DNA of 64,000 nucleotides from contig DAOSLF010000003.1 of NCBI GenBank assembly GCA_035368605.1, forward strand, positions 889 to 64,888, written 5' to 3'. The notes beneath the pieces were generated by a model. That model made no database searches, was not told where the DNA came from, and saw only the letters and a program-made list of their open reading frames with translations. Shown here piece after piece: positions 1-26,419 of this stretch. Numbering within the stretch: position 1 is the stretch's first letter; each line of letters begins with the position of its first letter. The translations under genes were made by a program, and so were the position numbers. Source of the stretch: Candidatus Omnitrophota bacterium. Lineage in GTDB: Bacteria; Omnitrophota; Omnitrophia; Omnitrophales; Aquincolibacteriaceae.

Positions 1-3000
1 AATGTGAAGCGCCGGCGCCCGTCTCGGCACGGACAAGTTCTCCGGCCGCGTTATAAGTCATCGTGTAATCCCCGACTTTACATTGAAACCCGAGGAACCC
101 GCCCTCCTCATCCTGCACAATTTCACGCGACGTCCCTTGAGGCAGAGACTGTTCAAACAGCGAACCCTCCGCGAGCCGTCCCCGGACCGGAACGTAATCT
201 TCAATTTCAAGAATCAATCCGTTCGAAAACTGGATCTGCCCGGCTTTGATTCGCTGATCTTCATCAAACACAAGATTGACCGCCGTGGCGCCCGAGGCGA
301 GATGAACTTCGGATCCCTGATCCCCCTCAAAAATGATCCAGGAACCGTCCGGGGCCTGATACCCCTTCAGACTGACAGCCCGAAGACCTGTTTCCGCATA
401 GGCTGCATTCTTATAGTCGCCGGGGTCGGGAACCGCTCCGTCAGGAAGCGTTTGGAAATAATCGGAATATTCATAAAGGTAACCATCCCGGGTAAGATGC
501 TTGATCAGTTTGCCGTCGGCGTCATAAAACCATACCGTCCCGCGTTCATCCGTGATCCGGGTCTCTTCACCTTCATAAGAATACCGGGTGCTGTTCAAAA
601 CACGGTTCCGGTAGGTCAATTCCGCTCCGATGATCTCCTCATCGGAATAAAGGTAGTGAGTCACGATCCCGTTCGGGTCTGCCGAGGTTAAAAGTTTTCC
701 GCCCCTGAACCGGCGGACTTCCCCGCTCACAGGATCCGTGAAAACGGTGATCTCGTTTCCTTCGCTGTCAAACTCATAGGAAAGATCATATTGCCTTCCA
801 TCCGGCTGGATAATCCTCCGGAGCGCGCCGTAGCTGTAACTGACCGCCGGGGACCCGTCCGGGGAAGTATGATCCGGGCCGCCGATACTGATCTCGGCCG
901 AGTTCTCGGAAAATTCATATTCGTTGACGATCCCGTTCGGAAGCGTCACGCGGGTCACCTCGCTTCCGTTCAGTTCAACCCGGGTTCCGTCAAATCTCCG
1001 GAAGGTCACAAGCCGGTTCGCCCCGGCAGTCGTGTCCGTGTGAATCATCCGCGTGGGAATATCCAGATAAGGCAGGAGCCCCGGAAAAGTGAGCGGTGTT
1101 CCGGCGGCAATGGTCGCGCCGACCGAAGAAAGGTTCTCGGCCTCGATCTTGAGATTCCTGATCCGGGAAGCCCGAATACCCGCCTGCTCCTCCCAGAGAG
1201 GCTCTTCAAAAGTTTTCAGGCTCATGTAGGAAACATCCTTGAAATAGACGCATCCTTCCTTTCCCACGCCGTCGCTTTCCTTCACAAGTTCGAGAGTGAT
1301 CTCGCCTTCCAATCCGGCTTTGCCCGCCATGGGGAACCAGAAGGTCCGGTATTCCGGCACCAGGTTTTTCATGCTGAACGCATATAAAGTGTTGTAGCCC
1401 GTTCCTTTTATCTTGAACGTAAAATCCTGGTTCCATGTCATGGAGGGATCCTGCATGAGGGTGACCGACAAAAATCCGTAATCGGAGATCTCGAACGGAG
1501 AGTTTTGATGATTAAAAACCATCCCGAGGACGTGGCTTGTGCTCGTGCTTTGATATTGAAACATAAAATACGCCTGGGAGTCATAGCCGATATCGGCCCG
1601 CCGGGCATAGATCATTTCGCCCTGGGGGTGATCGGGATAACTGAACTCCCCGACGATCGACCCCGGGATCGCGATCACATTCAGCGTTCTTGATATAAGC
1701 TGCGCCCGTTCAGCGGCCCTCTCGGGAAGCATGAGATATTCGAAAAGAGGCATGGAAACGGGCTCGCCTTCCCGCGTAAATTCCGCGTCAACCCCGACAA
1801 CGCGGCCGGCCGCGTCGTAACGATAAACAAGATCCGTGCGGCCATTCCGGAGGGTCTCGACCGCCGTGATCTCGGTCCCCCGGTAATAAAGCCATATGCC
1901 CTCGCCGACACTCACCCGGTTACCCGCGAATTCATCAATATCCATCTCCCTTCCGTCGTTCAGAACCGCATGGGCCCGGATCAGGTTGCCGTCGTCTCCG
2001 AACTCAATCCCCGTAAGAATGGCCTGAGGGGTCGTGATCGAAATGATCCGGCCTCCTTCCATCTGAACCGTGTTCCCGTCCTGAATCATCGTCCGGAGCG
2101 TCCCGTCGGTATTGAAAATCCTCCGGCGGTCATTGTCCTGGATATTGAAGGAATGGATCGTTCCCCGGAGGTCCTGATCGTAGTAAAAACGACCCGTTTC
2201 CAGCTTCCCCCGCGCGAGATCAATGATGAAACTCGCAATCCCTTTTTCATAGAGCACCGTCCGGCCGTTACGAAAAACCCACTTTGAAAGAAGCCCGTTT
2301 TCAAAATACTGAATACTGCCGTCCGCCCGCCGGAGAATGCCGCTTACAAGTTTCCCGGACGAATCGATCGTAAAATTCTCGAGAATTTCCTCGGCATCGC
2401 GAACCCCTCCGCCGAAAGCCTCCGTGACGATCCCGTTCCGGATCAATGTCCTTATCTCCTGTTCGCTTTTACCGAGCATCATCGCCCAGTCCAGCCGGTT
2501 CGTTGTCCGGACCTTGAAGCCGGAAAGCGGTCCGATATAAATTTCTCCGGCAACAGGCTCCCCGTTCGCCGACTGAATGACCGTCGTTATCATCTCCGCC
2601 CTGCCGTCAAGCGGCCGCACCACCGGGATCGTGATGAACTGCCATCCCTGTTTTAGCGGTTCGGTCAGAAAAATATTCCCGGTCCCCTTGAATTCGAACT
2701 TCAGTCGTATGTTTTCCGGCGTGCCGTCACCGACGCGGACGGGAACCGAAAGAAAATCAAAGCGGTCCAGGTCCAGGGGCGCGGCGCTGTACTTGTTCCA
2801 AAGCCCCACAGGATGCTCCGCGTCCAGGAACTGGAACGCTATCTGGCGGACTTCCCCCAATAACGGATCGCGGATCAGTTCGCTTGCCGCGTAACCATGC
2901 AGAGGCGTATAAAAAGCTCCCTGGGAATCCGCCCTGTTGTAAACATCGAGCTCAAAACCTCCCATGAGGGCCCGGCCGAGATCGGTATGCCCCGTCAACA

Positions 3001-6000
3001 AAAGATATTCCTGGATATCCATTTCCCTGAAACTGCCGCCCTCTCCGAACTCGATCGCGCTGTGGTGGAAAGTTCCGTCCGGCTGGCGATAATTGAACAC
3101 ACGACCTTCGCCGAATCTGGAATCAAAAACGTTCGGAATAAAGCTCGGCTGTTTCACAAGGCCGGACATCTTTCCGTCGGGCATAACGCTTCCGCCGTCA
3201 TAAAGCACTTCGACGTTTTCGCCGAACGGGGGCATGGGGAGCGCGGAATCCGTCGCGGGGTTCAGATTCAACAGGAACGATCCGTAGAGGTTGTCGAAAC
3301 GCTCCGCGACACCCCGGTCCATCAGATAGCTCCGCAAATAACCCCGGCTCGTCGTGAGAAGCGAAAGAATGAATGATGCCTGGTCCACACCGAAATACTG
3401 CGACGAAAAAACAGGCTCTTCGGTCGGCAAGATCTCCCCCGTGACGGGATCCGTATGAAGAACGGTTCTTATCGAAAGAGCGTCCACAAAACCCGCTTCC
3501 GTCACGATCTCCGGAAAACTCGTTTCCAGATTCTTGAGAAACTGAAGCGTGTAATGCGGGGCCAGGCCAAAGGCCGAGGCTGTCCCGTAAATTGACCCGA
3601 TATCGCTATGGCGGACATCATCCGCTTCGGCGGCCGCGGGAAGACCGATTTTGCCTTCGTATCCGTACCCGGGATTATCGCCCGCCGACAAAAGGCCGGG
3701 ATTCCCGGTCCCGAAAGCGTATTCGGCCTGCACGTAAAGAAAATTCCGGAGCGCGACATTGAATTCGGGATACCGGGTTTCATCCACGTGGATCAGCGGC
3801 CAGAACATCTGGAAGGTCCCTCCGTCAAACGGCGCCGCGAGTTCGATTGCCCGGCCTTCTTCCGTCAAGTAACGCCGGATTGTGACATCCAGTCCGTCAA
3901 ACGCAGGTTGATACTCGGGGTAATTCGCCGCGAGCCAAACCATGCCCGGGCGAAATTCGTTGAACAGGCGGTCTATATAATAATTGTTAACAAACTCCCA
4001 TTGCCCGGTCTGCGGATTAAGTCCGTAAGCACCCCGGAAACGTTTTTTCACGGAATCATAAAAAGCCGCGTATCCCGCTTCCTGGGCTGTCAGGATCGCG
4101 TTAGCCCGTGCGACAATACTTTCCCGCAGAACCGTCATATCGGGCTCAAGAGAAAGATTTTTTACGGCCCCGAGCACACTCGAAAGGCTGACGGCAAGGT
4201 TCAGCGTGTCTCCAAAACCGTATTGATCGGAAAGGTTTTCGTAACGGTAAGTCTTTATGACCTCCCCGGTTGGCTCCCCGGATTCATCAAGGACCGGCTG
4301 CTCATTTTCAATGATCCTGAAAAAAGCGACCATACCGTTCCATCCCGCCTGACGCTGGACTTCCTGATAGACCGCCAGCAAGGCTTCCAGTTTTTCGAAA
4401 GCCTGTTTCCTTGAAACAAGCGGCGTTTCAAAATCACCGGCCGCGATCGCGGCAAGGATCTCGGCCCAGAAACCCACAAGCGTAGCCTGGCTGTAATCCG
4501 ACTGTTGATCTTCCGCGAGCAGGTAATTATCGAGAGGAAGTCCGGTGCCCGCGTGGAGCCCTTTGCCTTCCGAAAAAAATCCGAGCTGTTTTTCGACCAG
4601 ATACCGCCGGTAAGCGGCTTCGGCGGCCGTCAGAGCCTCCGGAGGGGACGCGGGACCGGGCTCTTGAAATTCGATCGCGTCCGAAAATTCGAGAAAACGA
4701 CCGGACGCGGTAATTTGTTTGACGATCTCATTGTTTTCGATCAGGCATTGGGTCCCGTCACGAAAAAGGATCTCGCCGCTGAAAATATACCCATTCTCAT
4801 CAACCGTCAGTGAACGCAGGCTCGCGTTGGGAAGTTCGATCACGGAAACAAAGTGCTTCCCGGGAAGAAGCTCGGGAACCTCATAGGGCTCGATCCGGAC
4901 CTGTCTGGATTGAACATAACGGACCGGGCGGCCCTGCTCGAATTCGATCCGTCCCCCGCCCGGGAGATCGATCTTTACAAGTTCGGTCAGCCTTTCAGTC
5001 AATCCTTCGCCGTTCGGATAGCGGATCACCCGATAGGTCATTCCGTCTTCCGTGATGAGGCTCTCGGGTTCCCGGCTGTTCCGATAATCGATGAAGATCG
5101 TCCGGACACCATCCGCCCCGATCCGTTCGATCACTTTGGAGTTTCGATAGATCTCTACCTGCCCGTCCGCGGATGTCCTCCTGAAACCCGTCAGGCTGGT
5201 CCCGTTCCAGACAAGCTCCGTTAAAACAGTTCCGTCCGAGAGCACGATACGGTCAAGCGAACTTTCGTCGATACGAAGAAGCGTCCCGTCGCTTAGCCGC
5301 AGGCCCTCCAGCGCGCCCTCCGCGTTATAGATCTGAACCACACCGCTTCCGTCATCCCAGGAAATCGAAAGAAGGTCGCCGTTTTGAGATATCTGATTCC
5401 CGATCGAAACAACCCGGTGATCCGGCCCCGTCAAGGCGACGGGCAGGCCATCCGCAAGCCGCAGAATCTCTCCTTTTCCTGAAACCGTCTGCCGGATATT
5501 TCCCGTCGCGTCGTATTCGATCCGTTCGAGAAGATCATTCTGCAGGGTCTCCCAGGCTTCAGGGAACGCGTCCTTGTTTTGGAGGAAAAGGCCGGGATCT
5601 ATTTCGGTCGAAAAACCCGCCGGCCTGACGGCAATAATCTTCGATAAATAACCCGTAAGATCATGCCCTTCCCGGCTGATACTTGTTTCATAGCGGAAAA
5701 AATCACCGTTCGCATTCCTGTAACCTTTGAGAAATCCGTCTTCATAATAGACCTGGGTCCCATCCGAACGTTTGATCCAGAGCGGTTTTCCCTGATCGTC
5801 ATAGCGGGCGGTGAGGTTCTCTTCAAAACTCAAAATCCCGGTCACGGAGCCTCCATCACCCGACCGGTAGGCGAAATCCGTTCTTTTTGAATCGGAGCCG
5901 AGAACATAGGCCACGGTCCCGTCCTCGTGGTAGATCAACTTCTCCCCCGACGGTTTCTCCAGGCAAACCGGCTTCCCGCCCTGATAAAGCATCCGGTCAC

Positions 6001-8260
6001 CGTTCTGAAAAACAAGAAGCCCTCCCGCGAGATTGTTCCCGGAATCAAATTCCGGAAGGTAAAGCGTATAAACCGAAGGCTGTTCGACCGCCGTCAGCAT
6101 ATCCCCGGCATACTTCAGCACCATGCCGTTTTGCGTGGTTAAGGTTATCGGGTCCGTGCCCAAAACGGGCACTCCGGGCACTTCGGGAACTTCGGGGGCA
6201 TTTTTCCGGAGCATCACTTCATGAGCCAGATAGGTCGAACCGCTTCCCCGGCTGCCGCTGATCAAAAGCTCGTTGAGACCCGGCCGGAGTCTCCAGGTCT
6301 CATTATGAAGCTCTCCGTCCACCGTGTAAGTCAGCGTATAGAATTCCTGATCCGTCAAAGACGGAGACGTCACGACCACAACGGGCAACACCGGGGCCGT
6401 CGTGTAAAAAATACTGTCGGAAAAAACCGTTCTGTTACCGGCCCGGTCCTCGACCTCGCACAAAACCGTTTTTAATCCGTCTCCTCCTTCCCCGGGGATC
6501 TCAACAACCTTGTTCGCTCCGTAAGTCTCCCAATCCGTCCAGCTGGACCCGTCATCCAGTGAAAACCTGACGCTGGCAACCGGGGAAAGATCGTCCTGCG
6601 CCTCGATAAAAAGAGCCAGGGCCCTCGAATCCGTCTCGGCGTCCCCCCTGTTGATCCGTAAACTCCCCCACGGCGGCACCGTATCCAGAAAAATCGTCAC
6701 GGTCTTCGTCGAAGTGCGTCCGAAAATATCGGTCGCGGAAAGAACCACCGTGTTCTCACCTTCCTGCAGGGAATAGCTCCGGGTCCGATCCTTGCCGTCC
6801 ACGGTGTAACGAAGTTCGCAGGAGCTTTCCCGGGTGTAAACCGGCTGTTCGGGTATTTCGATCTCGGGCGGAGTCGTATCAAGGACCCGGCGGCCGTCAT
6901 TGTAAAATTCTTCGACGGAACCTTCTTCGTAAAGGACCTGATAACCGGTGACGGCTTGTCCGTCCGTGATATTCCGGATAATGCTTTTGGCGGGTATCGT
7001 GCTCGCGCGGTCGAGCGCGGCTGTCAGCGATTCGGGGAGAAATGCGCCGCGGCCATAAGACTCGGAGGTCGCCCGGATACTGTAATTCCCGGTCCCGGCG
7101 TTCACGAATACCGGATCGGCCTTCAGATTTCCGGCTGTCTGCGCCGCGGCCGCGGGAGGCGTAGCGCTGCCATAAGCGGTACTCCGTTCCGTATTCTTCC
7201 AAAAGGTATTGTTCTCCACCACGGCATATCCGCGGCCTGGCTGACCGGCGGAGTGGGCGGCCCAGGAGAACTCATAGATCGATGAAAATGTGCTTCCCGT
7301 GAAAATATTATTACAGATCCGGCTCTTCGCTCCGGAAAGGACGTTTATGGCGATATCGTTCGCCACGAAGGTGTTGTACCTGATCACGGTCGTGTCCTTC
7401 GGGAGCTGGACTCCGACATGCGTCATCGAAAAATAATTCATTTCGATCAGCGTATCGGAACCGTTCCGGACATGAATGCCGTAATCCTTGTTAGCCACGA
7501 TCCGGTTATGGCGGATCACAACCCTGTCTCCTTCAACGCGGATCGCAGCGGAAGGAGTCCCCGCGTAAGGGCCGATCCCCGAGATTGTCAGTCCTTCAAT
7601 CCGGTTATTCCCCATCGCGCGAATCCCCTGGATTCCCGTTTCATAATCACCGTGAAGGATCGTCGTATCTGCATTCTCCCCCTGCAAATTCACCCCGGCT
7701 TTCAGAATCAGCCCTTGGGGACACCCAAAGGCGTCGCGTTCGTAATGATAAGTGCCGGAATGGATGAAAAGGGTCGTCCCGGCTTCGGCGTTATCGATCG
7801 CGGACTGGATCGATTGTCCTTCATAGACATGACGGAACATTCTGCCATCCGGAAGTTTTTCCGTTACGATCCGTCCGGATTCATCATAAATATTCTGGTC
7901 CGTTCCCGGACTTTCGGAAAGCGGACCGGCGTTATTAGCGAGGAACTGCGTGGTGGCATCCGCAAGAACCGGTTCATCCGGTGCCGTTGATGAAACATTT
8001 GCCGCCGCGACAACCGGTCGGACCGCGGTGAGATCATAGTCCTGCGACGGAAGACCATCGCACCAGACCGTCTGGTGCCAAACAAGACAGAATACCAGGC
8101 AAAGCGCCACCACTCTGATGGACAGCCGATGCGAGCAGCGGCAGAAACGCTTCGCGAACGCAGGAAGTGGCAAGACTCCCGAAAGAGAAGCCTCCGCTTG
8201 AACCCGCGGCAAGATCATCACATCCCGATCACTTTGGCGTTCGTCGGATATTTTCTTCAT
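1..8260 (-). CDS. Giant secreted multidomain protein, N-terminal >2,750 aa only (C-terminus lies beyond nt 1): signal peptide, parallel beta-helix repeats, Ig-like modules, glucoamylase/GH144-like region, many YD/RHS-type repeats
   Basis: Absent from the ORF track because no stop codon falls inside the window. Hand translation of the minus strand from ATG 8260 (alt ATG 8218) gives MKKISDERQSDRDVMILPRVQAEASLSGVLPLPAFAKRFCRCSHRLSIRVVALCLVFCLVWHQTVWCDGLPSQ... The frame was spot-checked open at nt 7618, 6538, 5278, 4498, 3418, 2338, 1498 and 58. No minus ORF in this frame is listed over 8.2 kb; all listed ORFs here are short shadow ORFs. Motifs: NNRIEGLTISG, VIRHNRIVANKDYGIHV, VIRYNTFVANDIAINV (beta-helix); YRYDAAGRVVGV, YEFDSEGNEI, FYDADGKLI, YDDQGKPL (YD repeats); YFGVDQASFILSLL (GH144/PF10091-like). 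Confidence 0.85.
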   Translation of the reverse strand, partial: MKKISDERQSDRDVMILPRVQAEASLSGVLPLPAFAKRFCRCSHRLSIRVVALCLVFCLVWHQTVWCDGLPSQDYDLTAVRPVVAAANVSSTAPDEPVLADATTQFLANNAGPLSESPGTDQNIYDESGRIVTEKLPDGRMFRHVYEGQSIQSAIDNAEAGTTLFIHSGTYHYERDAFGCPQGLILKAGVNLQGENADTTILHGDYETGIQGIRAMGNNRIEGLTISGIGPYAGTPSAAIRVEGDRVVIRHNRIVANKDYGIHVRNGSDTLIEMNYFSMTHVGVQLPKDTTVIRYNTFVANDIAINVLSGAKSRICNNIFTGSTFSSIYEFSWAAHSAGQPGRGYAVVENNTFWKNTERSTAYGSATPPAAAAQTAGNLKADPVFVNAGTGNYSIRATSESYGRGAFLPESLTAALDRASTIPAKSIIRNITDGQAVTGYQVLYEEGSVEEFYNDGRRVLDTTPPEIEIPEQPVYTRESSCELRYTVDGKDRTRSYSLQEGENTVVLSATDIFGRTSTKTVTIFLDTVPPWGSLRINRGDAETDSRALALFIEAQDDLSPVASVRFSLDDGSSWTDWETYGANKVVEIPGEGGDGLKTVLCEVEDRAGNRTVFSDSIFYTTAPVLPVVVVTSPSLTDQEFYTLTYTVDGELHNETWRLRPGLNELLISGSRGSGSTYLAHEVMLRKNAPEVPEVPGVPVLGTDPITLTTQNGMVLKYAGDMLTAVEQPSVYTLYLPEFDSGNNLAGGLLVFQNGDRMLYQGGKPVCLEKPSGEKLIYHEDGTVAYVLGSDSKRTDFAYRSGDGGSVTGILSFEENLTARYDDQGKPLWIKRSDGTQVYYEDGFLKGYRNANGDFFRYETSISREGHDLTGYLSKIIAVRPAGFSTEIDPGLFLQNKDAFPEAWETLQNDLLERIEYDATGNIRQTVSGKGEILRLADGLPVALTGPDHRVVSIGNQISQNGDLLSISWDDGSGVVQIYNAEGALEGLRLSDGTLLRIDESSLDRIVLSDGTVLTELVWNGTSLTGFRRTSADGQVEIYRNSKVIERIGADGVRTIFIDYRNSREPESLITEDGMTYRVIRYPNGEGLTERLTELVKIDLPGGGRIEFEQGRPVRYVQSRQVRIEPYEVPELLPGKHFVSVIELPNASLRSLTVDENGYIFSGEILFRDGTQCLIENNEIVKQITASGRFLEFSDAIEFQEPGPASPPEALTAAEAAYRRYLVEKQLGFFSEGKGLHAGTGLPLDNYLLAEDQQSDYSQATLVGFWAEILAAIAAGDFETPLVSRKQAFEKLEALLAVYQEVQRQAGWNGMVAFFRIIENEQPVLDESGEPTGEVIKTYRYENLSDQYGFGDTLNLAVSLSSVLGAVKNLSLEPDMTVLRESIVARANAILTAQEAGYAAFYDSVKKRFRGAYGLNPQTGQWEFVNNYYIDRLFNEFRPGMVWLAANYPEYQPAFDGLDVTIRRYLTEEGRAIELAAPFDGGTFQMFWPLIHVDETRYPEFNVALRNFLYVQAEYAFGTGNPGLLSAGDNPGYGYEGKIGLPAAAEADDVRHSDIGSIYGTASAFGLAPHYTLQFLKNLETSFPEIVTEAGFVDALSIRTVLHTDPVTGEILPTEEPVFSSQYFGVDQASFILSLLTTSRGYLRSYLMDRGVAERFDNLYGSFLLNLNPATDSALPMPPFGENVEVLYDGGSVMPDGKMSGLVKQPSFIPNVFDSRFGEGRVFNYRQPDGTFHHSAIEFGEGGSFREMDIQEYLLLTGHTDLGRALMGGFELDVYNRADSQGAFYTPLHGYAASELIRDPLLGEVRQIAFQFLDAEHPVGLWNKYSAAPLDLDRFDFLSVPVRVGDGTPENIRLKFEFKGTGNIFLTEPLKQGWQFITIPVVRPLDGRAEMITTVIQSANGEPVAGEIYIGPLSGFKVRTTNRLDWAMMLGKSEQEIRTLIRNGIVTEAFGGGVRDAEEILENFTIDSSGKLVSGILRRADGSIQYFENGLLSKWVFRNGRTVLYEKGIASFIIDLARGKLETGRFYYDQDLRGTIHSFNIQDNDRRRIFNTDGTLRTMIQDGNTVQMEGGRIISITTPQAILTGIEFGDDGNLIRAHAVLNDGREMDIDEFAGNRVSVGEGIWLYYRGTEITAVETLRNGRTDLVYRYDAAGRVVGVDAEFTREGEPVSMPLFEYLMLPERAAERAQLISRTLNVIAIPGSIVGEFSYPDHPQGEMIYARRADIGYDSQAYFMFQYQSTSTSHVLGMVFNHQNSPFEISDYGFLSVTLMQDPSMTWNQDFTFKIKGTGYNTLYAFSMKNLVPEYRTFWFPMAGKAGLEGEITLELVKESDGVGKEGCVYFKDVSYMSLKTFEEPLWEEQAGIRASRIRNLKIEAENLSSVGATIAAGTPLTFPGLLPYLDIPTRMIHTDTTAGANRLVTFRRFDGTRVELNGSEVTRVTLPNGIVNEYEFSENSAEISIGGPDHTSPDGSPAVSYSYGALRRIIQPDGRQYDLSYEFDSEGNEITVFTDPVSGEVRRFRGGKLLTSADPNGIVTHYLYSDEEIIGAELTYRNRVLNSTRYSYEGEETRITDERGTVWFYDADGKLIKHLTRDGYLYEYSDYFQTLPDGAVPDPGDYKNAAYAETGLRAVSLKGYQAPDGSWIIFEGDQGSEVHLASGATAVNLVFDEDQRIKAGQIQFSNGLILEIEDYVPVRGRLAEGSLFEQSLPQGTSREIVQDEEGGFLGFQCKVGDYTMTYNAAGELVRAETGAGASH

Positions 8261-8427: not shown

Positions 8428-8619
8428 CTAGAAGCTGAACTTTCCTGCGCAATGTTTTTCTTCGAGGATATCAAATATCTCGTTGATGTAGCCCTGGATG
8501 TGGACAGGCGGCTGATTATCGAAGAGGAGGGACAGGTTCAGGAGGAAACGGCGGACTTCCGTGGCGAGCTTCTGGTCTTTGATCCTGGAAAGCCTTGTTT
8601 CCAATTCTTCCATCAACAT
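8428..8619 (-). CDS. Hypothetical small helical protein (63 aa)
   Basis: ATG start with GGGAGA 9 nt upstream. GC3-rich codons like neighbouring genes. Lies in an otherwise AT-rich 600-bp divergent control region. No family recognised. The overlapping plus-strand ORF 8425..8715 looks less protein-like. Confidence 0.35.
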   Translation of the reverse strand: MLMEELETRLSRIKDQKLATEVRRFLLNLSLLFDNQPPVHIQGYINEIFDILEEKHCAGKFSF

Positions 8620-14530: not shown

Positions 14531-14588
14531 AGGGAGGGATATGATAGCAGAAAATGCTCCATTCCTCAATACAGTCCCGGGGTCCGGC

Positions 14589-15974
14589 TCAGGCGGCGGT
14601 GTCGCGGGAGGTAGTCAGGACGAGGGTGTCCTGAAGGGATTTTTTCTTCCTGCGGAAAAGCTCCAGGTCTTCGCGGGAGGCACGCCACGAATAGGACTTC
14701 GTCTGGGACAGGAAGAACATCAGATAATCCCAGTCCTTGTAACCGTAACCATGAAGGACATCCGCAAACTCACGGGCCGCGAGCTCCCAGAGATAAATAA
14801 CATCTGCATTGATGCCTCCGGTCGCGGAATAGACCTTCTGGCGGATGTCCTTCGAAGGGGCCGTCATATAGAGCGAATAATGGCACGGCTTTGAAGGTTC
14901 GTACTTCAGCATCACCTTGACACCGGAGAACGTGTTATAAATCCGCTCGTCCTGACCGATCAGCATCTGGATGCGCCGCGTAAGCTGAAGGGCAAGGAAT
15001 TCCCCCGTCGTCATATCCGGCACGTTGAACTCCGTATCCCACCGGTCCAGGCTTTTCAGGATCATATCCCGGTTCATCGGGAACGACGGATCGTCAAACG
15101 CGCTGGCCATCATCGCCATCGGGATGATCCGCGTGATCTTTTCCTTTTCGCCGTCGACAGACACGTGGAAAAGGTATTCAGGGGTCTCCGGAGGAATCTT
15201 CGCGCCTTTCGGCGTCACCCTGGTCTTCGCATAAACGACGACCTGCCGGTCCTGGAGTACGAGGCTCCGGATATCGAGAATCTCCCAGGACGCCTGCGCA
15301 CGTTCAAGGGGGTATCCCGTCGCGTCCTCGAAATAGAACTCTTTCATCCACTTGACGTCCTCCTGGCCTTTGAAATACCGCGGCTTGAGCTCCTGGCGGG
15401 TCATCGTGTTCAGGTCCGCGAAGAATTTCCGGACCGGCCGGTGCCAGAGGATGGGACGGTTCAGCTGGATTTCGTAAATGAGGCGTTTGCGGTATTCGCT
15501 GCGCGGAATGTCCCAGAAGCGGACCTTCTTCACATCGTCGCTCGCGCCTAGGAACATCATCTCCATCCCCGTCTTTTCGGTGTCCGCGGCCTGGAGGTAA
15601 TAAAAATCGATCTTCTTGTCGGTGGAGAGCATGACGCGCGACATCGAAAAGAGCATGTCCTCAATGCGGTCGATCGCTTTTTCGGTCGGCTGGAAAAGCT
15701 GTTCCATATCGGTCACCTGGCCGGAGAGGATGGCTTCCTTGAAATCCATCGCGAAGAGCTGATCGAGGGGGAGAAAAACGCCGAGCGTCGTTCCGTTGAT
15801 CCTCACGTCACATTGGCGGATGCCGTATTCCTTCTCGGCGATCGACGCGATCTCTTCCTTGACCTTCTCGGCCCGGTAACTGGCGGGCGTGCAACCGGCA
15901 AGGAAGAGGACCGTGAAAAGAAAAAGGGACAGGCTCGCGACCGGAGAGATCGGACCTGTCCCCTGTTTCCTCAT
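14589..15974 (-). CDS. Hypothetical lipoprotein (461 aa)
   Basis: Signal peptide with canonical lipobox LFLAGC. No recognisable family. Sits between the FtsH paralog and hrcA. Confidence 0.7.
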   Translation of the reverse strand: MRKQGTGPISPVASLSLFLFTVLFLAGCTPASYRAEKVKEEIASIAEKEYGIRQCDVRINGTTLGVFLPLDQLFAMDFKEAILSGQVTDMEQLFQPTEKAIDRIEDMLFSMSRVMLSTDKKIDFYYLQAADTEKTGMEMMFLGASDDVKKVRFWDIPRSEYRKRLIYEIQLNRPILWHRPVRKFFADLNTMTRQELKPRYFKGQEDVKWMKEFYFEDATGYPLERAQASWEILDIRSLVLQDRQVVVYAKTRVTPKGAKIPPETPEYLFHVSVDGEKEKITRIIPMAMMASAFDDPSFPMNRDMILKSLDRWDTEFNVPDMTTGEFLALQLTRRIQMLIGQDERIYNTFSGVKVMLKYEPSKPCHYSLYMTAPSKDIRQKVYSATGGINADVIYLWELAAREFADVLHGYGYKDWDYLMFFLSQTKSYSWRASREDLELFRRKKKSLQDTLVLTTSRDTAA

Positions 15975-21655: not shown

Positions 21656-24600
21656 CTAGAACTTCCCCGTCATCCGCACGAACGGACCGCTGTTATGATA
21701 ATTGTTCGCGTCCCGGAGGTCATCCGTAAAATCGGTAAAATTATAACCGATCCCGATCCGCACGTAATCATAGATTTCACGATCAACCTCGAAAAGCATC
21801 CCGTGCCGTATCGTATCGAGCGCGGAGGATTGCCACAAGAGCCGATATTCGGCCGCGATATCCCATTTCCGGGTCACATGGAAATTAATGCGGCTGACAG
21901 ACAAGAAATTACCGGTATCCGTCTCATCAAGCGTGTTACGGGCCAAAGTGAACAAGTCGCGATCCTGGGTGATCAGCGTTGCCCGTTTCCACGCCAGTTT
22001 CTGTGCGAGACCGAAGAACCGATTCACGTCATAGATCGCGTCCATTGAGATAACATGCGCGATCTCATGGAACATGTTTTCGTTGTAATAAGAATTCACG
22101 TACTGAAAATCATTTCCGATGTCTCTCAAATAGCTATACTTAAAGAGAAAATTCAGGTGGTCAAGACCAATAGGGCGATAGGCAAAAGCCACGGTAAAAT
22201 CCGCAAAATTCCCAAGATTTGTTTGCTTGCTTTCATCCACGAGATCGAAAAGATAGGTGGCGCCATAATCAAATTTGGTCAGAAAAGTCAGCTCGCGATG
22301 AATTTGATATTGAAATGAATTGCGCAAGACCAGCTGATTACCCTTGGGATACGCACCATTGCTTCTCAGTTCCGCATAAGTCCGCGCACGGAGTTTTCTG
22401 CCGTCCGCGTAGGCCAGATAGCCTCCATAAACGTTGGAGCTGTTATTCTGCGCCAGGCTATTTTCAACCAATGTCAGCAGATTCCGGGCCATCGAACTGT
22501 CCAAGTGCCGCCGCTCATACTTCGCGCCGTAATCCCAGTGGTCGTTCAGCGCGCCCTCATAGCCGAGAATATCCGCAAAACCATCCACGCCCTGGTAGGA
22601 GGAGTACTCGCGTTCCGAATAAATTCGCGATTTCTCGGTAAGCGAAAAAGAGCTCCCGATCGCGGTTGAGAGTGTCCTCGAACCAATGCCGCGGTCGATC
22701 GAGCGGAGGTTCGCATAGCTTCGCGCGCCGTTGCCGTGGTTCCTTTCGAAGCCGAAGTAGGTCGAATCCCCCAGCGGACCGAACATCTGCTCGATATAAC
22801 CGAAGACATCCTTGATCAGCTCGCAACGCACACCGCCGCCAAACTGGTAATTGTCCGCCGAGTGAAGAGTCGTTTGCGCTTTCACATACGGCAAGAGGCG
22901 GTCATTGATATGGTAGCCGATCTTGGTCGCGATGCCGTGCTCATAGGGGATTTCGGAATAAAGCGAGGGCGTCAGGTTGGCAGCGTCCTGGACTTGGTCG
23001 ATGTTGCTGCGCTGGTATTCGGCCTGGGCAAGGTATTTGCCGTTATCGTAGGCAAGCTGGGCCGTGTGGGTCTGCAGGTCTTCGTAAGGGGCCATGATAT
23101 TATGCTCGGCAAGAGGCATCAACTGGCCGATCACCTCGCTTGAATCGAAACGGTAGCGGGCCGAGAAATTATCGGTGAACTTGTAACGGCTCGCGAGACC
23201 GTATTTCTTGAAACCTTCCTGGCTCGTCATGTGGCCGTTCGAAAAACTCGGCTCCACGCCCTGGACGTAACCGCTCACTTCGAGGTTCCTCACGGGTTCC
23301 GACTGCGCGCGGATCAGGTAGGCGTCCTCGCGCGGCCGCGTGTTGTCCCCGCGCAGGTTCCCTTCCGTCCCGAAGCTGAGCCCTCCGTCGAAAGAGACCG
23401 AGGAATCCATCTGCTTGTTCGCGGTGGTCGCGTACTCCGCGGTGATCTTGGTGTTGCGGCCGAACTTCATCATCAGGTCAACGCCGCGCATGTCGTAATC
23501 GTTGCCGCCGGTCCGTTTTTCCTCGACCGCCGTTGCACCGAGCCTCACGTGATCGCCGGCCCACACGTAACCGCGCAGACCGCGGTTGCCGATCTCCGGA
23601 AGGTCCGACGAGGAAGGTTCATACTCGTAGTCCACGATCAGGTAAACGGGATTGCCGTCCATGATATCGGCCGAAACGAGCGAATCCGTCGCGGCGACGG
23701 ACGAGAGCGGGCGGGAAAGAAGGATGCGGCCTTCGGCGTAGCTGATCTCGTAATCCGTCCCTTCCGTCATGTCGTGGCTCGTCAGCACCATCCCCGTAAT
23801 CTTGTCGCGGATCTCGACGCGAATCTTTTCGCTACCTTCGATCAGGTTCCGGTTGCGCGTGTAGAAAAGGGAGCCGCCCGTCGCGTAGAACTCGTTATGG
23901 TCGGCCCGTTTGTCCGAATCAGCCCAGAAAAACCGGAGACCGCGCTTCGGGTCCCCGTAGACCGTGCTCGCGACCGAATCGAAACTCCCCTTGAGGCCGG
24001 AGAGCGTCCGGTTATAGGTGGCCAGTTCGGTATCCGTGAATTCCGTCTTGAAGCTCCCCCATTTCAGATAAGACTTGTCCATCTCGACCAGCACATAGAG
24101 CCGCTGGGCCGTGTCCTGCGCCTCGTAGTCGCGTGCCGAGTAGTCGCCGTAGACCGGATAGTATTCGTCAGGGTCGAGGTTCGTGAACAGCGCGGAACGG
24201 CGATCCGAGGTGTCGTAGTGAGCCTTGACGAGGAACTTCCCCTTGAGTTTCGATTTCAGGAAAAAGGCCGCGCGGCCGTCCTCGGTGAACCCGTCGCGGT
24301 AGGCGTCGGAATCCGCGGCTTCCATCGCCCCGTTCGCGAAATTGATGCCGAGCTGCTCCTCGCCAAGGGCGACCATGAAGAACGTGCTGTCCTTGACCTT
24401 GATCTTTTCCTGGTAGGTCGTGCTTTCCCCTTTCGGATCCGCGGCCATGATGTTGAACTCGTGCTCGCCGGGCTCGACGAAGAACTCCTTCTGGAACATG
24501 CCGGTCTCGGGGTCCACTGTCACGGGGAGGTCGTTGATCATGACCTGGTACTCGGGTCTTGTCTTGCCCTGGACCCGGACCGTCGGTTTCGCGATGAGGG

Positions 24601-26419
24601 GGATGCTGCGCTTGCCGTCCTTAAAGAGGTTGAAATCCCCGACCGCCGGAAGCTCGGGCTGGTAGTTCTTCTGGGCCCTGGGATCGAGCTTGTTGTAGAC
24701 CTCGAAGAACTTGAGGGTTGTCCAATCCTCGTGGTGCTTCGCATCGCGAACCTTGAGCTGGTACGAATAGACGCCGGGCTTGATCATGAAACCATTCTCG
24801 GCCTTCCCGTCCCACGTCACCTCCGCGGGCGGCGCACCGATGCCGTAACCGGTCCAGACGGGCACGCCCATTTCGTCGCGGACCTCGATGGCCCATTTCT
24901 TGACGAACCTGGCGTAATTGGTGTCGAGCCTGAAGAGCGCGTCCTTTTCGAGGACCCCGACGCCGAGCTTCAGGAGCTCCGGTTCCATCATAATGTCAAG
25001 GTCCGGCCGGGAGATATCAACCCCCTGCGTGACCATGACCATCAGGTCCTTGCGGAACGCCTCGGGAATGCCGGAGGGCGGGAGCAGGACGGCAAAACTC
25101 GCCTTGCCCATGAGACCGGGCGTGATCTTCACGAGATAGGTCTCTTCGGTGATGAATTTCGTTCCTTCGGGAAGCGTATGCCCGTCGATCTTGACGAGAT
25201 GGCGGCCCGGCGCGACGCCGGGGATGTGATAGCGGCCGTACTCATCGGTGACAACCTTGATGCCCTCTTCCGTATAAAGCGTCACCCACGGCACGCCCTC
25301 TTCACCGCATTGCTGGACGCCGTCCTGGTTAAGATCGTTAAAGACCTTGCCGATGATGGTCCCCTCCTCAAAGATCGGATCGCCCACGACCGTGAACTGC
25401 ACGTGCGCCGTTTCGGAAAGCGTGCCGCCGCTCCCCTCCACCGTAACCTCCAGCGAATATGTCTTCCCGAGCTGGACACCGCTCGTCACGAGCGTGGCAA
25501 ACGTCACGTCATACGAGGCGCCGGGTCCGATCGTCCCGAGCGGGATGAGCAGCGAGCCGTCCTGCCCGGCGACCGACTTCCCGTTCACGCGGATCGAATG
25601 CTCGGCGTAGTCGAACCCGTTCGGAATCTTGACCCGCATGTTCGAGTTCGTGAAGGTGTTGCCGGAACTATTCCGGAAATGCGCATTAATCCCGATCGCG
25701 TCTCCTTTCTTGATGTGACGCTTGGACGCCGCAACCGTAAGCTTTGCCGGATTCACTTCCGCGTTCAGATCGTCATACAGAATATTTCCATATCGGGGAA
25801 CTGCACCGGCGCTGACACCGTTGGCATCCAAAACAAAAACAACTTTGGCCGCATTTTCAGGAACGATCGCAGTTATCGAAAAGAGCGTCCAGACGCCCAC
25901 CGGAGCGGTGGCAGCAGTGATTTTTCCCGTTTCAACGGGAGTTCCGATTTTCACCCCGGAGGCGTCCTCGAACTCGATCTTCATTCTCCCCCCCGTGTCC
26001 GCTGCCATGATGTCCGATTGGGCATAGCCCGAGAAAGTAATGTAATCTCCCGGCTTCACGTTGCTGTAGGTCTGGAACGTGAAGGTGCTTTCATAAAAAG
26101 CCGGCGCGTCAAAATAGGCCTGCAAATAAAGCGCGTAGGAGCCGTTCCTCGGGGCGAGAAAACCGGGCGGCAACCCGGCGGGATTAACCACTCCATCCCA
26201 GCGCCCCATTTTGGCGGTCGTGTTCAAAGGCCTGGTGTTATCTGCCCAGTTATTCTGCGTCCCGTCCCCAAGCGGCTGTTCAAAACTCGGGTTGCCGAGC
26301 ACGTTGGCGAAGGCGGAAGGCGTAAAAGCGAAAAACAGCCACAAACCACAAAACCATACGGCAATACGAAGCCGGGGCGCTTTCTTGGCGGGCATGTGGT
26401 GTGTGGCGCGTGACATCAT
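21656..26419 (-). CDS. Very large multidomain outer-membrane protein (1,587 aa): CBM-like N-terminus, DUF11-like repeat, SdrD-B/Cna-B-like and FlgD-Ig-like modules, about 900-aa C-terminal beta-barrel-like region
   Basis: Signal peptide ...WFCGLWLFFAFTPSAFA. NVLGNPSFEQPLG (CBM4/9-like). LTVAASKRHIKKGDAIGINAHFRNSSGNTFTN...IPNGFDY (DUF11-like). GTIIGKVFNDLNQDGVQQCGEEGVPWVTLYTEEGIKVVTDEYGRYHIPG (SdrD-B-like). VTWDGKAENGFMIKPGVYSYQLKVRD (FlgD-Ig-like). Aromatic-rich alternating C-terminal part ending ...VRMTGKF (terminal Phe, OMP hallmark). Confidence 0.8.
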   Translation of the reverse strand: MMSRATHHMPAKKAPRLRIAVWFCGLWLFFAFTPSAFANVLGNPSFEQPLGDGTQNNWADNTRPLNTTAKMGRWDGVVNPAGLPPGFLAPRNGSYALYLQAYFDAPAFYESTFTFQTYSNVKPGDYITFSGYAQSDIMAADTGGRMKIEFEDASGVKIGTPVETGKITAATAPVGVWTLFSITAIVPENAAKVVFVLDANGVSAGAVPRYGNILYDDLNAEVNPAKLTVAASKRHIKKGDAIGINAHFRNSSGNTFTNSNMRVKIPNGFDYAEHSIRVNGKSVAGQDGSLLIPLGTIGPGASYDVTFATLVTSGVQLGKTYSLEVTVEGSGGTLSETAHVQFTVVGDPIFEEGTIIGKVFNDLNQDGVQQCGEEGVPWVTLYTEEGIKVVTDEYGRYHIPGVAPGRHLVKIDGHTLPEGTKFITEETYLVKITPGLMGKASFAVLLPPSGIPEAFRKDLMVMVTQGVDISRPDLDIMMEPELLKLGVGVLEKDALFRLDTNYARFVKKWAIEVRDEMGVPVWTGYGIGAPPAEVTWDGKAENGFMIKPGVYSYQLKVRDAKHHEDWTTLKFFEVYNKLDPRAQKNYQPELPAVGDFNLFKDGKRSIPLIAKPTVRVQGKTRPEYQVMINDLPVTVDPETGMFQKEFFVEPGEHEFNIMAADPKGESTTYQEKIKVKDSTFFMVALGEEQLGINFANGAMEAADSDAYRDGFTEDGRAAFFLKSKLKGKFLVKAHYDTSDRRSALFTNLDPDEYYPVYGDYSARDYEAQDTAQRLYVLVEMDKSYLKWGSFKTEFTDTELATYNRTLSGLKGSFDSVASTVYGDPKRGLRFFWADSDKRADHNEFYATGGSLFYTRNRNLIEGSEKIRVEIRDKITGMVLTSHDMTEGTDYEISYAEGRILLSRPLSSVAATDSLVSADIMDGNPVYLIVDYEYEPSSSDLPEIGNRGLRGYVWAGDHVRLGATAVEEKRTGGNDYDMRGVDLMMKFGRNTKITAEYATTANKQMDSSVSFDGGLSFGTEGNLRGDNTRPREDAYLIRAQSEPVRNLEVSGYVQGVEPSFSNGHMTSQEGFKKYGLASRYKFTDNFSARYRFDSSEVIGQLMPLAEHNIMAPYEDLQTHTAQLAYDNGKYLAQAEYQRSNIDQVQDAANLTPSLYSEIPYEHGIATKIGYHINDRLLPYVKAQTTLHSADNYQFGGGVRCELIKDVFGYIEQMFGPLGDSTYFGFERNHGNGARSYANLRSIDRGIGSRTLSTAIGSSFSLTEKSRIYSEREYSSYQGVDGFADILGYEGALNDHWDYGAKYERRHLDSSMARNLLTLVENSLAQNNSSNVYGGYLAYADGRKLRARTYAELRSNGAYPKGNQLVLRNSFQYQIHRELTFLTKFDYGATYLFDLVDESKQTNLGNFADFTVAFAYRPIGLDHLNFLFKYSYLRDIGNDFQYVNSYYNENMFHEIAHVISMDAIYDVNRFFGLAQKLAWKRATLITQDRDLFTLARNTLDETDTGNFLSVSRINFHVTRKWDIAAEYRLLWQSSALDTIRHGMLFEVDREIYDYVRIGIGYNFTDFTDDLRDANNYHNSGPFVRMTGKF

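Follow-up and report, generated by a model that had tools for sequence, protein, structure and literature searches.

A predicted glucanase-clan barrel at the core of a giant YD-repeat protein of Omnitrophota

Introduction

A 64,000-nucleotide (nt) stretch of a Candidatus Omnitrophota genome (GenBank assembly GCA_035368605.1, contig DAOSLF010000003.1, positions 889 to 64,888; hereafter the window) opens on a minus-strand open reading frame (ORF) for a giant protein, and the question that this locus raises is what such a protein is for: whether the YD-type repeats within it mark it as an Rhs toxin, or whether it is an enzyme, an adhesin or a housekeeping component of the cell envelope. Omnitrophota are an uncultured nanobacterial phylum of ultra-small, host-dependent bacteria, and the beta-1,2-glucanase families, to one of which the giant protein leads, were defined only between 2017 and 2025; to our knowledge, all characterised beta-1,2-glucanases are small soluble enzymes. 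We examined the giant protein by profile searches, structure prediction and comparison with orthologous loci, starting from a sequence-only reading of the window that had described a secreted protein with a beta-helix, a glucanase-like centre and YD repeats. The answer that we favour, with moderate confidence, is that the gene encodes an exported surface protein of ~4,300 amino acids (aa) that is plausibly a glycan-attacking device and not a classical RHS toxin.

Results

A predicted SGL-clan barrel is the conserved core of the giant protein

The giant ORF and the parts of it on which the predicted activity depends are as follows.

2..8260, minus strand: giant ORF; 2,753 codons, the N-terminal ~64% of a ~4,300-aa protein, leaving the window at its left edge
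3266..4633, minus strand: central (alpha/alpha)6 domain, aa ~1210-1665; the most conserved part, containing YFGVDQASFILSLL
4208..4210, minus strand: codon of Asp1351, equivalent of the candidate general base D149 of EeSGL1
3956..3958, minus strand: codon of Glu1435, equivalent of the general acid E221 of EeSGL1 and E239 of XcSGL
3812..3814, minus strand: codon of Phe1483 in a DGGxFQ motif, probable equivalent of the clan-defining F286 of XcSGL

The central domain occupies nt 3266-4633, close to the span of about nt 3290-4540 over which the sequence-only reading had seen a glucoamylase-like or beta-1,2-glucanase fold. When this domain was searched against the PDB as a single sequence, the sole match was 8xuj_A (E 4e-10), and a profile of 12 orthologous central domains reached the same structure at E 5e-19 over chain residues 21-393 of 447, with an identity of 20-21%. 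The matched protein, EeSGL1 of Endozoicomonas elysicola (PDB 8XUJ), is the founding beta-1,2-glucanase of glycoside hydrolase (GH) family GH192, designated Group 1 (PMC12102758). Structure prediction in segments, followed by Foldseek searches as the earlier reading had proposed, recovered the SGL-clan fold: the AlphaFold2 model of aa 1180-1700 (predicted local distance difference test 74.6; predicted template-modelling score, pTM, 0.81) is a barrel with extra beta-hairpin insertions, and its top 14 matches in the PDB all belong to the SGL clan, which includes GH144, GH162 and GH192-194 and to which GH189 is related. The best of these was GH192 8xuj (E 1.9e-17, template-modelling score, TM, 0.75-0.77), with further clan matches to GH162 (6imu/6imw) and to the GH189 domain of cyclic glucan synthase (8rf9/8rf0); the GH144 structures 5gzk, 4qt9, 3eu8 and 8xul followed at E about 1e-9 and TM 0.62-0.69, and epimerases and other (alpha/alpha)6 enzymes appeared at E 4e-4 or worse.

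Family GH144 (CpSGL 5GZK, XcSGL 8XUL) shares its clan and fold with the barrel of the giant protein but differs at the level of sequence models, as its Pfam entry PF10091 (Glycoamylase) reached 17.8 bits on the whole protein and 20.9 bits on a tile, below the threshold of 27, and the PDB sequence and profile searches with the central domain reached no GH144 chain. The tiled Pfam search suggested by the sequence-only reading thus placed the beta-helix and RHS/YD models described below over threshold, but not PF10091, and the glucanase-type fold foreseen for the central region stands with its GH144 label removed. By the matches in hand, the nearest family is clearly GH192, not GH144, and the central domain may branch deep within GH192 or belong to a sister family in the same clan.

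The residues required for catalysis by EeSGL1 have recognisable counterparts in the central domain. With E221 as its general acid and D149 as the candidate general base, EeSGL1 loses >99.9% of its activity when either is mutated; the SGL clan as a whole is defined by E239, F286 and Y367 of XcSGL, where the Phe adjoins the nucleophilic water and the Tyr stacks at subsite -3 (PMC12102758). D1351 and E1435 of the giant protein pair with D150 and E222 of the 8xuj chain, positions that carry a uniform +1 offset relative to the published numbering, and the DGGxFQ motif aligns to DGAYFQ of EeSGL1. F1483, which was mapped by alignment and spacing and not by superposition, sits 48 residues past the acid Glu, compared with 47 in XcSGL. 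All three residues are invariant across the 12 orthologs. A profile search of 1.84 billion cluster representatives returned 244 relatives, and among the 131 that span the catalytic region D1351 is retained in 129/131, E1435 in 129/131 and F1483 in 128/131. Conservation within the giant protein also peaks at the barrel, with 50-66% identity across orthologs. On its modelled fold, acid Glu and clan Phe, the central domain is a member of the SGL clan (clan GH-S), and beta-1,2-glucan is our best guess for the substrate of this predicted glucanase because all characterised active clan members, in Groups 1-3 and in GH144, are specific for beta-1,2-glucan (PMC12102758). The conserved core of the giant protein thus looks like an intact enzyme for cutting beta-1,2-glucan.

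Two known proteins of the clan differ from it in build. EeSGL1 is alike in its (alpha/alpha)6 barrel, acid Glu, candidate base Asp and DGxxFQ Phe, but it is a single-domain secreted enzyme of 438 aa with ~20% identity to the barrel of the giant protein. An inactive SGL-clan protein in which the barrel is followed by carbohydrate-binding modules (CBMs) provides a precedent for the domain inside a larger exported protein, although that protein is four times shorter and is without a beta-helix, YD repeats or a membrane region.

A giant protein with such a core could still be a non-catalytic adhesin, in which the barrel, the CBM-like modules and the beta-helix merely bind glycans and tether the protein to a host cell or surface. 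Many of its modules are of binding type (beta-helix, Ig-like, CBM-like, YD and, in orthologs, ILEI-like), a clan Group 4 protein shows no detectable activity despite its clan residues, and adhesion roles have been proposed in the literature for Omnitrophota long proteins. However, the near-total retention of both catalytic carboxylates and of the Phe, in the 131 representatives and in all orthologs, is what would be expected from selection on catalysis, and the barrel is the slowest-evolving part of the giant protein. We regard the adhesin as unlikely and retain the reading of the barrel as a predicted enzyme.

The distal head is exchanged between close strains at a conserved chromosomal locus

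Three features make up the N-terminal part of the giant protein.

8057..8137, minus strand: N-terminal hydrophobic segment, aa 42-68; the sole hydrophobic segment of the window part (Kyte-Doolittle 1.83)
6941..7813, minus strand: right-handed parallel beta-helix of pectate-lyase/NosD/CASH type, aa ~150-440; Pfam matches above threshold
6161..6940, minus strand: immunoglobulin (Ig)-like or beta-sandwich spacers, aa ~441-700; all matches sub-threshold

The hydrophobic segment is read as a Sec signal peptide or signal anchor, with likely cleavage after VWC at aa 67, and the N-termini of orthologs show the canonical pattern of a basic n-region, a hydrophobic h-region and an xWA/VFA-E/D site; the signal-peptide-like N-terminus noted from the sequence is consistent with both. 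The beta-helix scored above threshold with PF13229 (37.3-42.7 bits, threshold 25.9), with NosD PF05048 (36.5-38.3 bits, threshold 23.6) and, in the tiled search, with DUF1565 PF07602 (22.7 bits). These matches, PF13229 among them, lie at aa 150-357, about nt 7190-7813, where beta-helix repeats had been anticipated at about nt 7250-7800. For the Ig-like modules anticipated at about nt 6300-7000, signals do occur at aa 493-610 (Big_13 at 25.7 bits against a threshold of 27, Glucodextran_B, Big_3_3 and an OmpL47-type match at 22.5 bits), but every score falls below threshold, and the Ig-like assignment of aa ~441-700 is weak.

Comparison with a close strain revealed that the head does not share the history of the remaining protein. 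Strain UR.bin134 (L004, contig JAKJDL010000010.1, Candidatus Omnitrophota), an independent assembly, has 96.6% nucleotide identity to the window over nt 1108-6985. Within the head, at aa 184-430 (nt 6971-7711, minus strand), the two strains have 61% aa identity and a synonymous divergence (dS) of 1.70, compared with 94-99% identity and dS 0.04-0.18 in all regions outside it. Orthologs and paralogs, moreover, rank incongruently by head identity: P0004 shows 67% there and 47-52% elsewhere, and P0012, which is a non-orthologous protein, reaches 60% in the beta-helix head. Because of the low identity between strains, the high dS and the incongruent ranking, these alignments indicate that the distal head is swapped between close strains by recombinational module replacement. 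Glycan-binding or depolymerase beta-helix heads, such as those of phage tailspikes, are alike in their Beta_helix, NosD and DUF1565 signatures, their distal position and their strain-level module replacement, and the exchange seen here is reminiscent of that of receptor-binding modules. The head may likewise recognise glycans.

In a back-translated scan that took a single genome for each species, the central domain was encoded at 44 loci. Those with a name all come from Omnitrophota or 'Omnitrophica' metagenome-assembled genomes (MAGs) except for one 'Elusimicrobia' MAG, and the remainder are 'uncultured bacterium' MAGs. At 29/44 loci the identity is at least 46%, and these are read as orthologs; ~15 loci at 29-34% are read as paralogs. 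Paralogous SGL domains occur in other large Omnitrophota proteins, one of them within the same UR.bin134 MAG. The distribution points to a giant-protein family specific to Omnitrophota. Members of it are already present in public databases, where they are labelled hypothetical or 'YD repeat-containing'.

In the window the giant gene lies beside genes for a FadL-like porin, GpsA, DnaJ, GrpE and HrcA, and this FadL-GpsA-DnaJ-GrpE-HrcA synteny is common to the window and the orthologous loci L001, L003, L048, L050 and L051, breaking in the window past HrcA at about nt 14570. Elsewhere the window consists of housekeeping genes, including diaminopimelate (DAP) and arginine pathway genes, UvrA, an FtsH-like gene, SecDF and RecJ. 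Given this conserved neighbourhood and its housekeeping surroundings, the giant gene is a conserved chromosomal gene of an Omnitrophota lineage and, as far as the compared genomes indicate, single-copy, syntenic and specific to the phylum. Two of the loci, L001 (1-1556, minus strand) and L003 (1-1092, minus strand), carry a gene for an exported ~930-aa PF26157 (SGL_GH162) protein ~9 kb upstream of the ortholog, which has 22% identity to the barrel of the giant ORF. When a GH162-like second SGL gene was sought in the window, the sole match was the giant ORF's own central domain. Directly upstream of the giant gene stands one further conserved feature.

8431..8619, minus strand: conserved 63-aa ORF, MLMEELETRLSRIKDQKLATEVRRFLLNLSLLFDNQPPVHIQGYINEIFDILEEKHCAGKFSF, in the orientation of the giant gene

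The product of this ORF has 58-65% aa identity to those of 65-69-aa ORFs at the equivalent position in L001, L003 and L048, and it is possibly co-transcribed with the giant gene. When the region before the giant gene was scanned for promoters and terminators, a promoter-like site came up at 8676-8648, with a site count not above chance.

The conserved locus admits a second alternative, in which the protein is a housekeeping envelope enzyme that remodels or turns over the glucan of its own cell, in the periplasm or on the surface, and takes no part in contacts with others. One syntenic ortholog set amid core genes (FadL, GpsA, DnaJ, GrpE, HrcA) in many species is in keeping with it, as are purifying selection on the giant gene and its predicted anchoring in the cell's own membrane. 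Nevertheless, the swapping of the head between otherwise 96.6%-identical strains, and of the C-terminal module between orthologs, is typical of a variable external target, and ~4,300 aa with long spacers would be excessive for a periplasmic housekeeping enzyme. Furthermore, no glucan synthase gene was found among the window ORFs scanned, which were part of the total. We consider this role rather improbable and prefer an outward-facing, glycan-attacking protein.

Interrupted YD repeats and a mosaic C-terminus do not make a canonical Rhs toxin

Repeats of YD type lie on both sides of the barrel, interspersed on its C-terminal side with two beta-sandwich modules.

4721..6160, minus strand: N-side degenerate YD-type beta-hairpin repeats, aa ~701-1180; hhalign matches to the C-side YD regions
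2501..3157, minus strand: CBM-like beta-sandwich module 1, aa ~1702-1920; directly C-terminal of the catalytic domain
1736..2413, minus strand: middle YD/RHS stretch, aa ~1950-2175; PF05593 at 26.5 bits, threshold 22
1214..1696, minus strand: CBM-like beta-sandwich module 2, aa ~2189-2349; homologous to module 1
2..1057, minus strand: C-side YD/RHS stretch, aa ~2402-2753; PF05593 at 41.5 bits

The RHS repeat model PF05593 scored 37.2 bits on the whole giant protein, 26.5 bits on the tile of aa 1940-2230 and 41.5 bits on that of aa 2430-2753. The best-scoring part of the middle stretch is aa 2131-2157, which is modelled as beta-hairpin repeats, and the C-side stretch runs ~50 aa past the window edge in orthologs. 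On the N-terminal side, Pfam RHS_repeat reached 10.5 bits on aa ~701-1180, which is not significant, with only faint RHS, MORN and Tcp10 signals, and self-BLASTP of the giant protein found no internal repeats at E <1e-3. Profile-profile comparison was needed because the YD repeats are too degenerate for self-BLASTP, and with profiles built from orthologs hhalign matched the N-side repeats to the C-side YD regions in several registers, with probabilities of 93.6% (E 2e-7) and 95.1% (E 3e-8). A relaxed YD..G motif occurred 8 times compared with 0.8 expected, and all of its occurrences lie inside the three repeat regions except one, at aa 125 in the N-terminal linker. The claim that YD/RHS repeats flank the central region on both sides is therefore upheld, by PF05593 on the C-side (26.5 and 41.5 bits) and by profile-profile comparison on the N-side (94-95%). 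CBM-like modules 1 and 2 aligned to each other in hhalign at 94.9% (E 4.5e-8), and module 2 is a beta-sandwich in the model.

The window holds no C-terminus, and everything said of the giant protein past the window edge is taken from its orthologs. In these, ~50 aa of YD sequence are followed by an ILEI-like domain (29 bits in the tiled Pfam search), a coiled-coil-like region of about 330 aa, a C39-like domain, a membrane region and a C-terminal domain. The C39-peptidase-like domain (L001 19690-20245, P0001 aa ~3231-3415) scored a sub-threshold 18.4 bits and directly precedes the membrane region. Its presumed nucleophile position is Ser in all orthologs (HFGQSAF) and Cys in the paralog P0019 (FGRCAF), the His of HFVVL being conserved. 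The domain may be a processing protease that works with Ser, or it may lack activity and serve for docking. It also occurs in the paralogs P0015-P0023. The membrane region (L001 20245-21400, P0001 aa ~3416-3800) comprises two strongly hydrophobic segments of ~30 aa at about aa 3416-3480 and then ~300 aa of Gly/Ala-rich hydrophobic stretches with the look of glycine zippers; it may insert into the cell's own membrane or into that of a target. Other large YD proteins of Omnitrophota share this succession of coiled coil, C39-like domain and membrane region at 22-40% identity.

The final ~420 aa (L001 21400-22804, P0001 aa ~3850-4267) are mosaic. P0001 and P0002 have 82% identity in the core and 22% in this tail, and P0006, about 50% identical to P0001 elsewhere, has a tail identity of 81-84%; a GA[DG]H[FS]D motif is common to all tail types (P0001, P0002, P0004, P0006, P0007, P0011). 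A PDB sequence search with the last 1,067 aa of an ortholog gave no match, and Pfam on the ortholog C-terminal part returned only the ILEI-like and C39 signals already given and no toxin family. The expectation that a variable toxin tip would lie to the left of nt 1 is thus borne out as to variation, in that the tail does vary among orthologs, but not as to toxicity, for which no known family or structure was matched. Directly downstream of every ortholog is a gene for a small exported TPR-like protein, with 24-40% identity among loci, followed by the next conserved gene, of 201 aa, with 57-80%; in L048 the TPR-like gene is fused to the C-terminal part of the gene that follows.

L001 22797-23321; L003 23206-23616; L048 16989-17840; L050 16074-16871; L051 15959-16399: downstream TPR-like gene

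As a candidate immunity gene, the TPR-like gene evolves fast but did not co-vary with the C-terminal type of the giant protein, at 36-40% for B-B pairs and 31-38% for A-B pairs.

These results bear on a third alternative, that of a canonical Rhs/Tc polymorphic toxin, in which a closed YD cocoon would enclose a C-terminal toxin, freed by an RHS-core aspartyl protease and delivered into a neighbouring cell, with a cognate immunity gene downstream. Its attractions are the score of PF05593 over threshold, the Foldseek search of aa 1690-2753, in which teneurin, Rhs, Tse5 and TcB/TcC come first by E-value (with local matches to the teneurin, Rhs and Tse5 shells at 1e-15 to 1e-12 and TM about 0.1), the swapping of the last ~420 aa of orthologs independently of the remaining protein, and a downstream small gene at 24-40% identity compared with 57-80% for the next conserved genes. 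The known members of this group (RhsA 7Q97, Tse5 8CP6, YenB-C 4IGL, teneurin-2 6CMX) do share with the giant protein the PF05593 signature, the local beta-hairpin geometry and a C-terminal module that varies among relatives. They differ from it in most of what defines a toxin of this kind. The YD stretches of the giant protein measure ~480, ~225 and ~350 aa and are split by a glycoside hydrolase domain and two CBM-like domains, and no continuous YD shell closing into a cocoon is predicted for it. The RHS-associated core TIGR03696 (NCBIfam) had no match in P0001 or P0002, and the DPxG[LW] motif of the aspartyl autoprotease was not found near the C-terminal junction in nine orthologs. A coiled coil, a C39-like domain and a hydrophobic membrane region intervene in the orthologs between the YD repeats and a C-terminus that matches no known toxin family or solved structure, and the downstream gene does not follow the C-terminal type. 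Because its YD stretches are short and interrupted, and because neither TIGR03696 nor, at the junction, DPxG[LW] was found in the orthologs searched, we do not file the giant protein as an Rhs/Tc toxin; the canonical class was rejected, and we judge the toxin reading to be very unlikely. For annotation, YD/RHS repeat matches alone are no proof of an Rhs toxin.

The reading frame is an intact gene

The frame from ATG 8260 to the window edge contains no stop in 2,753 codons on translation, compared with 23-144 stops in each of the five alternative frames over nt 1-8260, which agrees with the minus-strand ORF originally described from that start; its absence from the ORF list is a listing artefact, as the list skips frames that leave the window edge. 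Against ten full-length orthologs (4,267-4,468 aa) the product is collinear and unbroken over query aa 46-2753 at 41-62% identity, for most orthologs as one single segment, so that about 1,550 further residues would be encoded beyond nt 1. The UR.bin134 frame is open in all 2,205 codons present, of which 2,201 aligned codons are ungapped relative to the giant ORF, and the ratio of nonsynonymous to synonymous divergence (dN/dS) between the two strains is 0.08-0.24 in every region, as expected of purifying selection. The open frame, the collinear orthologs and the UR.bin134 frame with its dN/dS together confirm that the giant ORF is a real, intact gene under selection and not an assembly artefact, and neither the ten collinear orthologs nor the second assembly point to the in-frame stop or frameshift that the sequence-only reading had named as its refutation. 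A chimeric or decaying ORF that merely looks continuous is effectively refuted by 0 stops in 2,753 codons, by collinearity with ten orthologs and by the same frame in an independent assembly at dN/dS ~0.2, even though the window and the UR.bin134 contig both end within the gene, as if assemblers struggle at this locus.

The start is less certain because orthologs begin ~40 codons downstream of ATG 8260, which is immediately preceded on its 5' side by an in-frame TGA at 8266-8264; the true start may be an internal codon such as ATG 8218 or TTG 8173. In a search for the missing C-terminus, an exact 40-mer from nt 61-100 had no match among genome and metagenome contigs, and the UR.bin134 contig stops still earlier within the giant gene, at aa ~2384. 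The window edge cuts the gene at aa 2753 and the end of the UR.bin134 contig cuts it at aa ~2384; in the latter MAG a paralog, too, is found where its contig stops (L042). Long genes with repeats of this kind apparently tend to interrupt assembly, an effect also described in the literature.

Discussion

Proposed function of the giant protein

The modules described above suggest how a glycan-attacking surface protein of this build might work. It would be exported via Sec and, to judge from the orthologs, tethered to the cell's own membrane by its C-terminal hydrophobic region, while its YD, Ig and coiled-coil parts would form an extended stalk, as opposed to a closed toxin cocoon, that presents the variable beta-helix head for the recognition of surface glycans. 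The GH192-like barrel and CBM-like core would act as an inverting endo-glycanase. Its most likely substrate would be beta-1,2-glucan, for instance a periplasmic or cyclic glucan made by a Gram-negative host, or else a related glycan in the envelope of a partner cell. The whole device would serve the host-attached or predatory lifestyle proposed for Omnitrophota. Such a mechanism fits the second exported SGL-clan protein (PF26157) and the paralogous SGL domains in large Omnitrophota proteins.

Several observations weigh against this proposal. PF10091 and PF26157 are both sub-threshold on the central domain and, combined with an identity of ~20% to EeSGL1, this means that substrate specificity is not confidently transferable. 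The candidate for the clan Tyr (Y367 of XcSGL) is Y1558, 123 residues beyond the acid Glu1435, which is Tyr in 106/131 representatives and which HMMER pairs with a His of EeSGL1. The Group 4 protein mentioned above keeps the clan residues and has no beta-1,2-glucanase activity (PMC12102758). A role in the envelope of the cell itself would also suit a gene that has one ortholog per genome and lies in a conserved housekeeping neighbourhood. The multi-domain model has a pTM of 0.36 and does not fix the relative arrangement of the YD segments, and the membrane topology is deduced from the hydropathy of orthologs, not from the window sequence.

In a bolder version of the proposal, episymbiotic or predatory Omnitrophota would use the giant protein, tethered to the membrane, as a contact device whose enzymatic core is constant and whose two ends can be exchanged. 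The head would select the host surface glycan, the active core would degrade host beta-1,2-glucans in the form of the osmoregulated or cyclic glucans in the periplasm of Gram-negative cells, and the swappable C-terminal module, placed behind the C39-like domain and the Gly-rich membrane region, would be a second, polymorphic effector. We think it unlikely that this version holds as a whole. If true, it would be the first case of beta-1,2-glucan as a target of inter-bacterial attack, and the YD-repeat protein would be built as an open stalk instead of a toxin cocoon. The more modest reading of a predicted surface glucanase already gives a concrete enzymatic hypothesis for at least some Omnitrophota long proteins, with a glucanase domain of ~450-700 aa that is small enough for expression and assay. 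The mosaic head and C-terminal module mark the parts that would face a variable partner and could help to identify hosts.

Relation to known Omnitrophota long proteins

Omnitrophota long proteins are mostly signal-peptide and/or transmembrane (TM) proteins, and the signal-peptide-plus-TM topology accounts for 39% of the Omnitrophota protein catalogue, in which a C39 group is the largest architecture cluster among proteins of at least 10,000 aa (Nielsen & Lui 2026, bioRxiv 10.64898/2026.06.07.730766). Giant proteins of the phylum carry RHS-like antiparallel beta structures and not classical Rhs cocoons (West-Roberts et al. 2023, bioRxiv 10.1101/2023.11.21.568195), and prey adhesion or cell-wall digestion has been proposed as the role of the long and giant proteins (bioRxiv 10.1101/2023.11.21.568195; 10.64898/2026.06.07.730766). 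The giant protein described here shares with these surface proteins the phylum, a predicted combination of signal peptide and TM topology, a C39-like domain as in their C39-bearing group, RHS-like antiparallel beta structures, carbohydrate-active domains and nearby genes for T2SSE (type II secretion ATPase). It differs in size, at only ~4,300 aa compared with the at least 10,000 or at least 30,000 aa of the catalogued proteins. The Archaeovorin/Dockerin proteins of West-Roberts are delimited by a length of at least 30,000 aa, SecA-DEAD and dockerin/TSP3 repeats; the orthologs here measure 4,267-4,468 aa, and the window ORF, P0001 and P0002 contain no Pfam match to SecA-DEAD, dockerin or TSP3.

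Long carbohydrate-active surface proteins in Omnitrophota and the SGL clan as an enzyme clan are thus recognised already. Neither West-Roberts 2023 nor Nielsen & Lui 2026 mentions a domain of the SGL clan or of a beta-1,2-glucanase, and in the literature searched we found no paper that links Omnitrophota to GH144 or to beta-1,2-glucanases. We could not find a protein of this kind described that has its conserved core in an SGL-clan glucanase, nor the combination of that core with CBM-like modules, open YD stretches and a beta-helix head, nor the exchangeability of both ends. The remark in the sequence-only reading that the architecture was not known as described holds for the exact architecture, but long carbohydrate-active surface proteins as such are established in the phylum.

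Other large ORFs in the window

Two further ORFs, at 14589-15974 (minus strand, 461 aa) and 26420-27994 (minus strand, 524 aa), had no Pfam match at E <=1e-3. Three larger ones, listed below, may encode additional envelope or surface proteins.

21656-26419, minus strand: 1,587-aa ORF; SdrD_B at threshold (29.7 bits), sub-threshold FlgD-Ig
50775-54917, minus strand: 1,380-aa ORF; no above-threshold domain
46962-49445, minus strand: 827-aa ORF; AsmA-like

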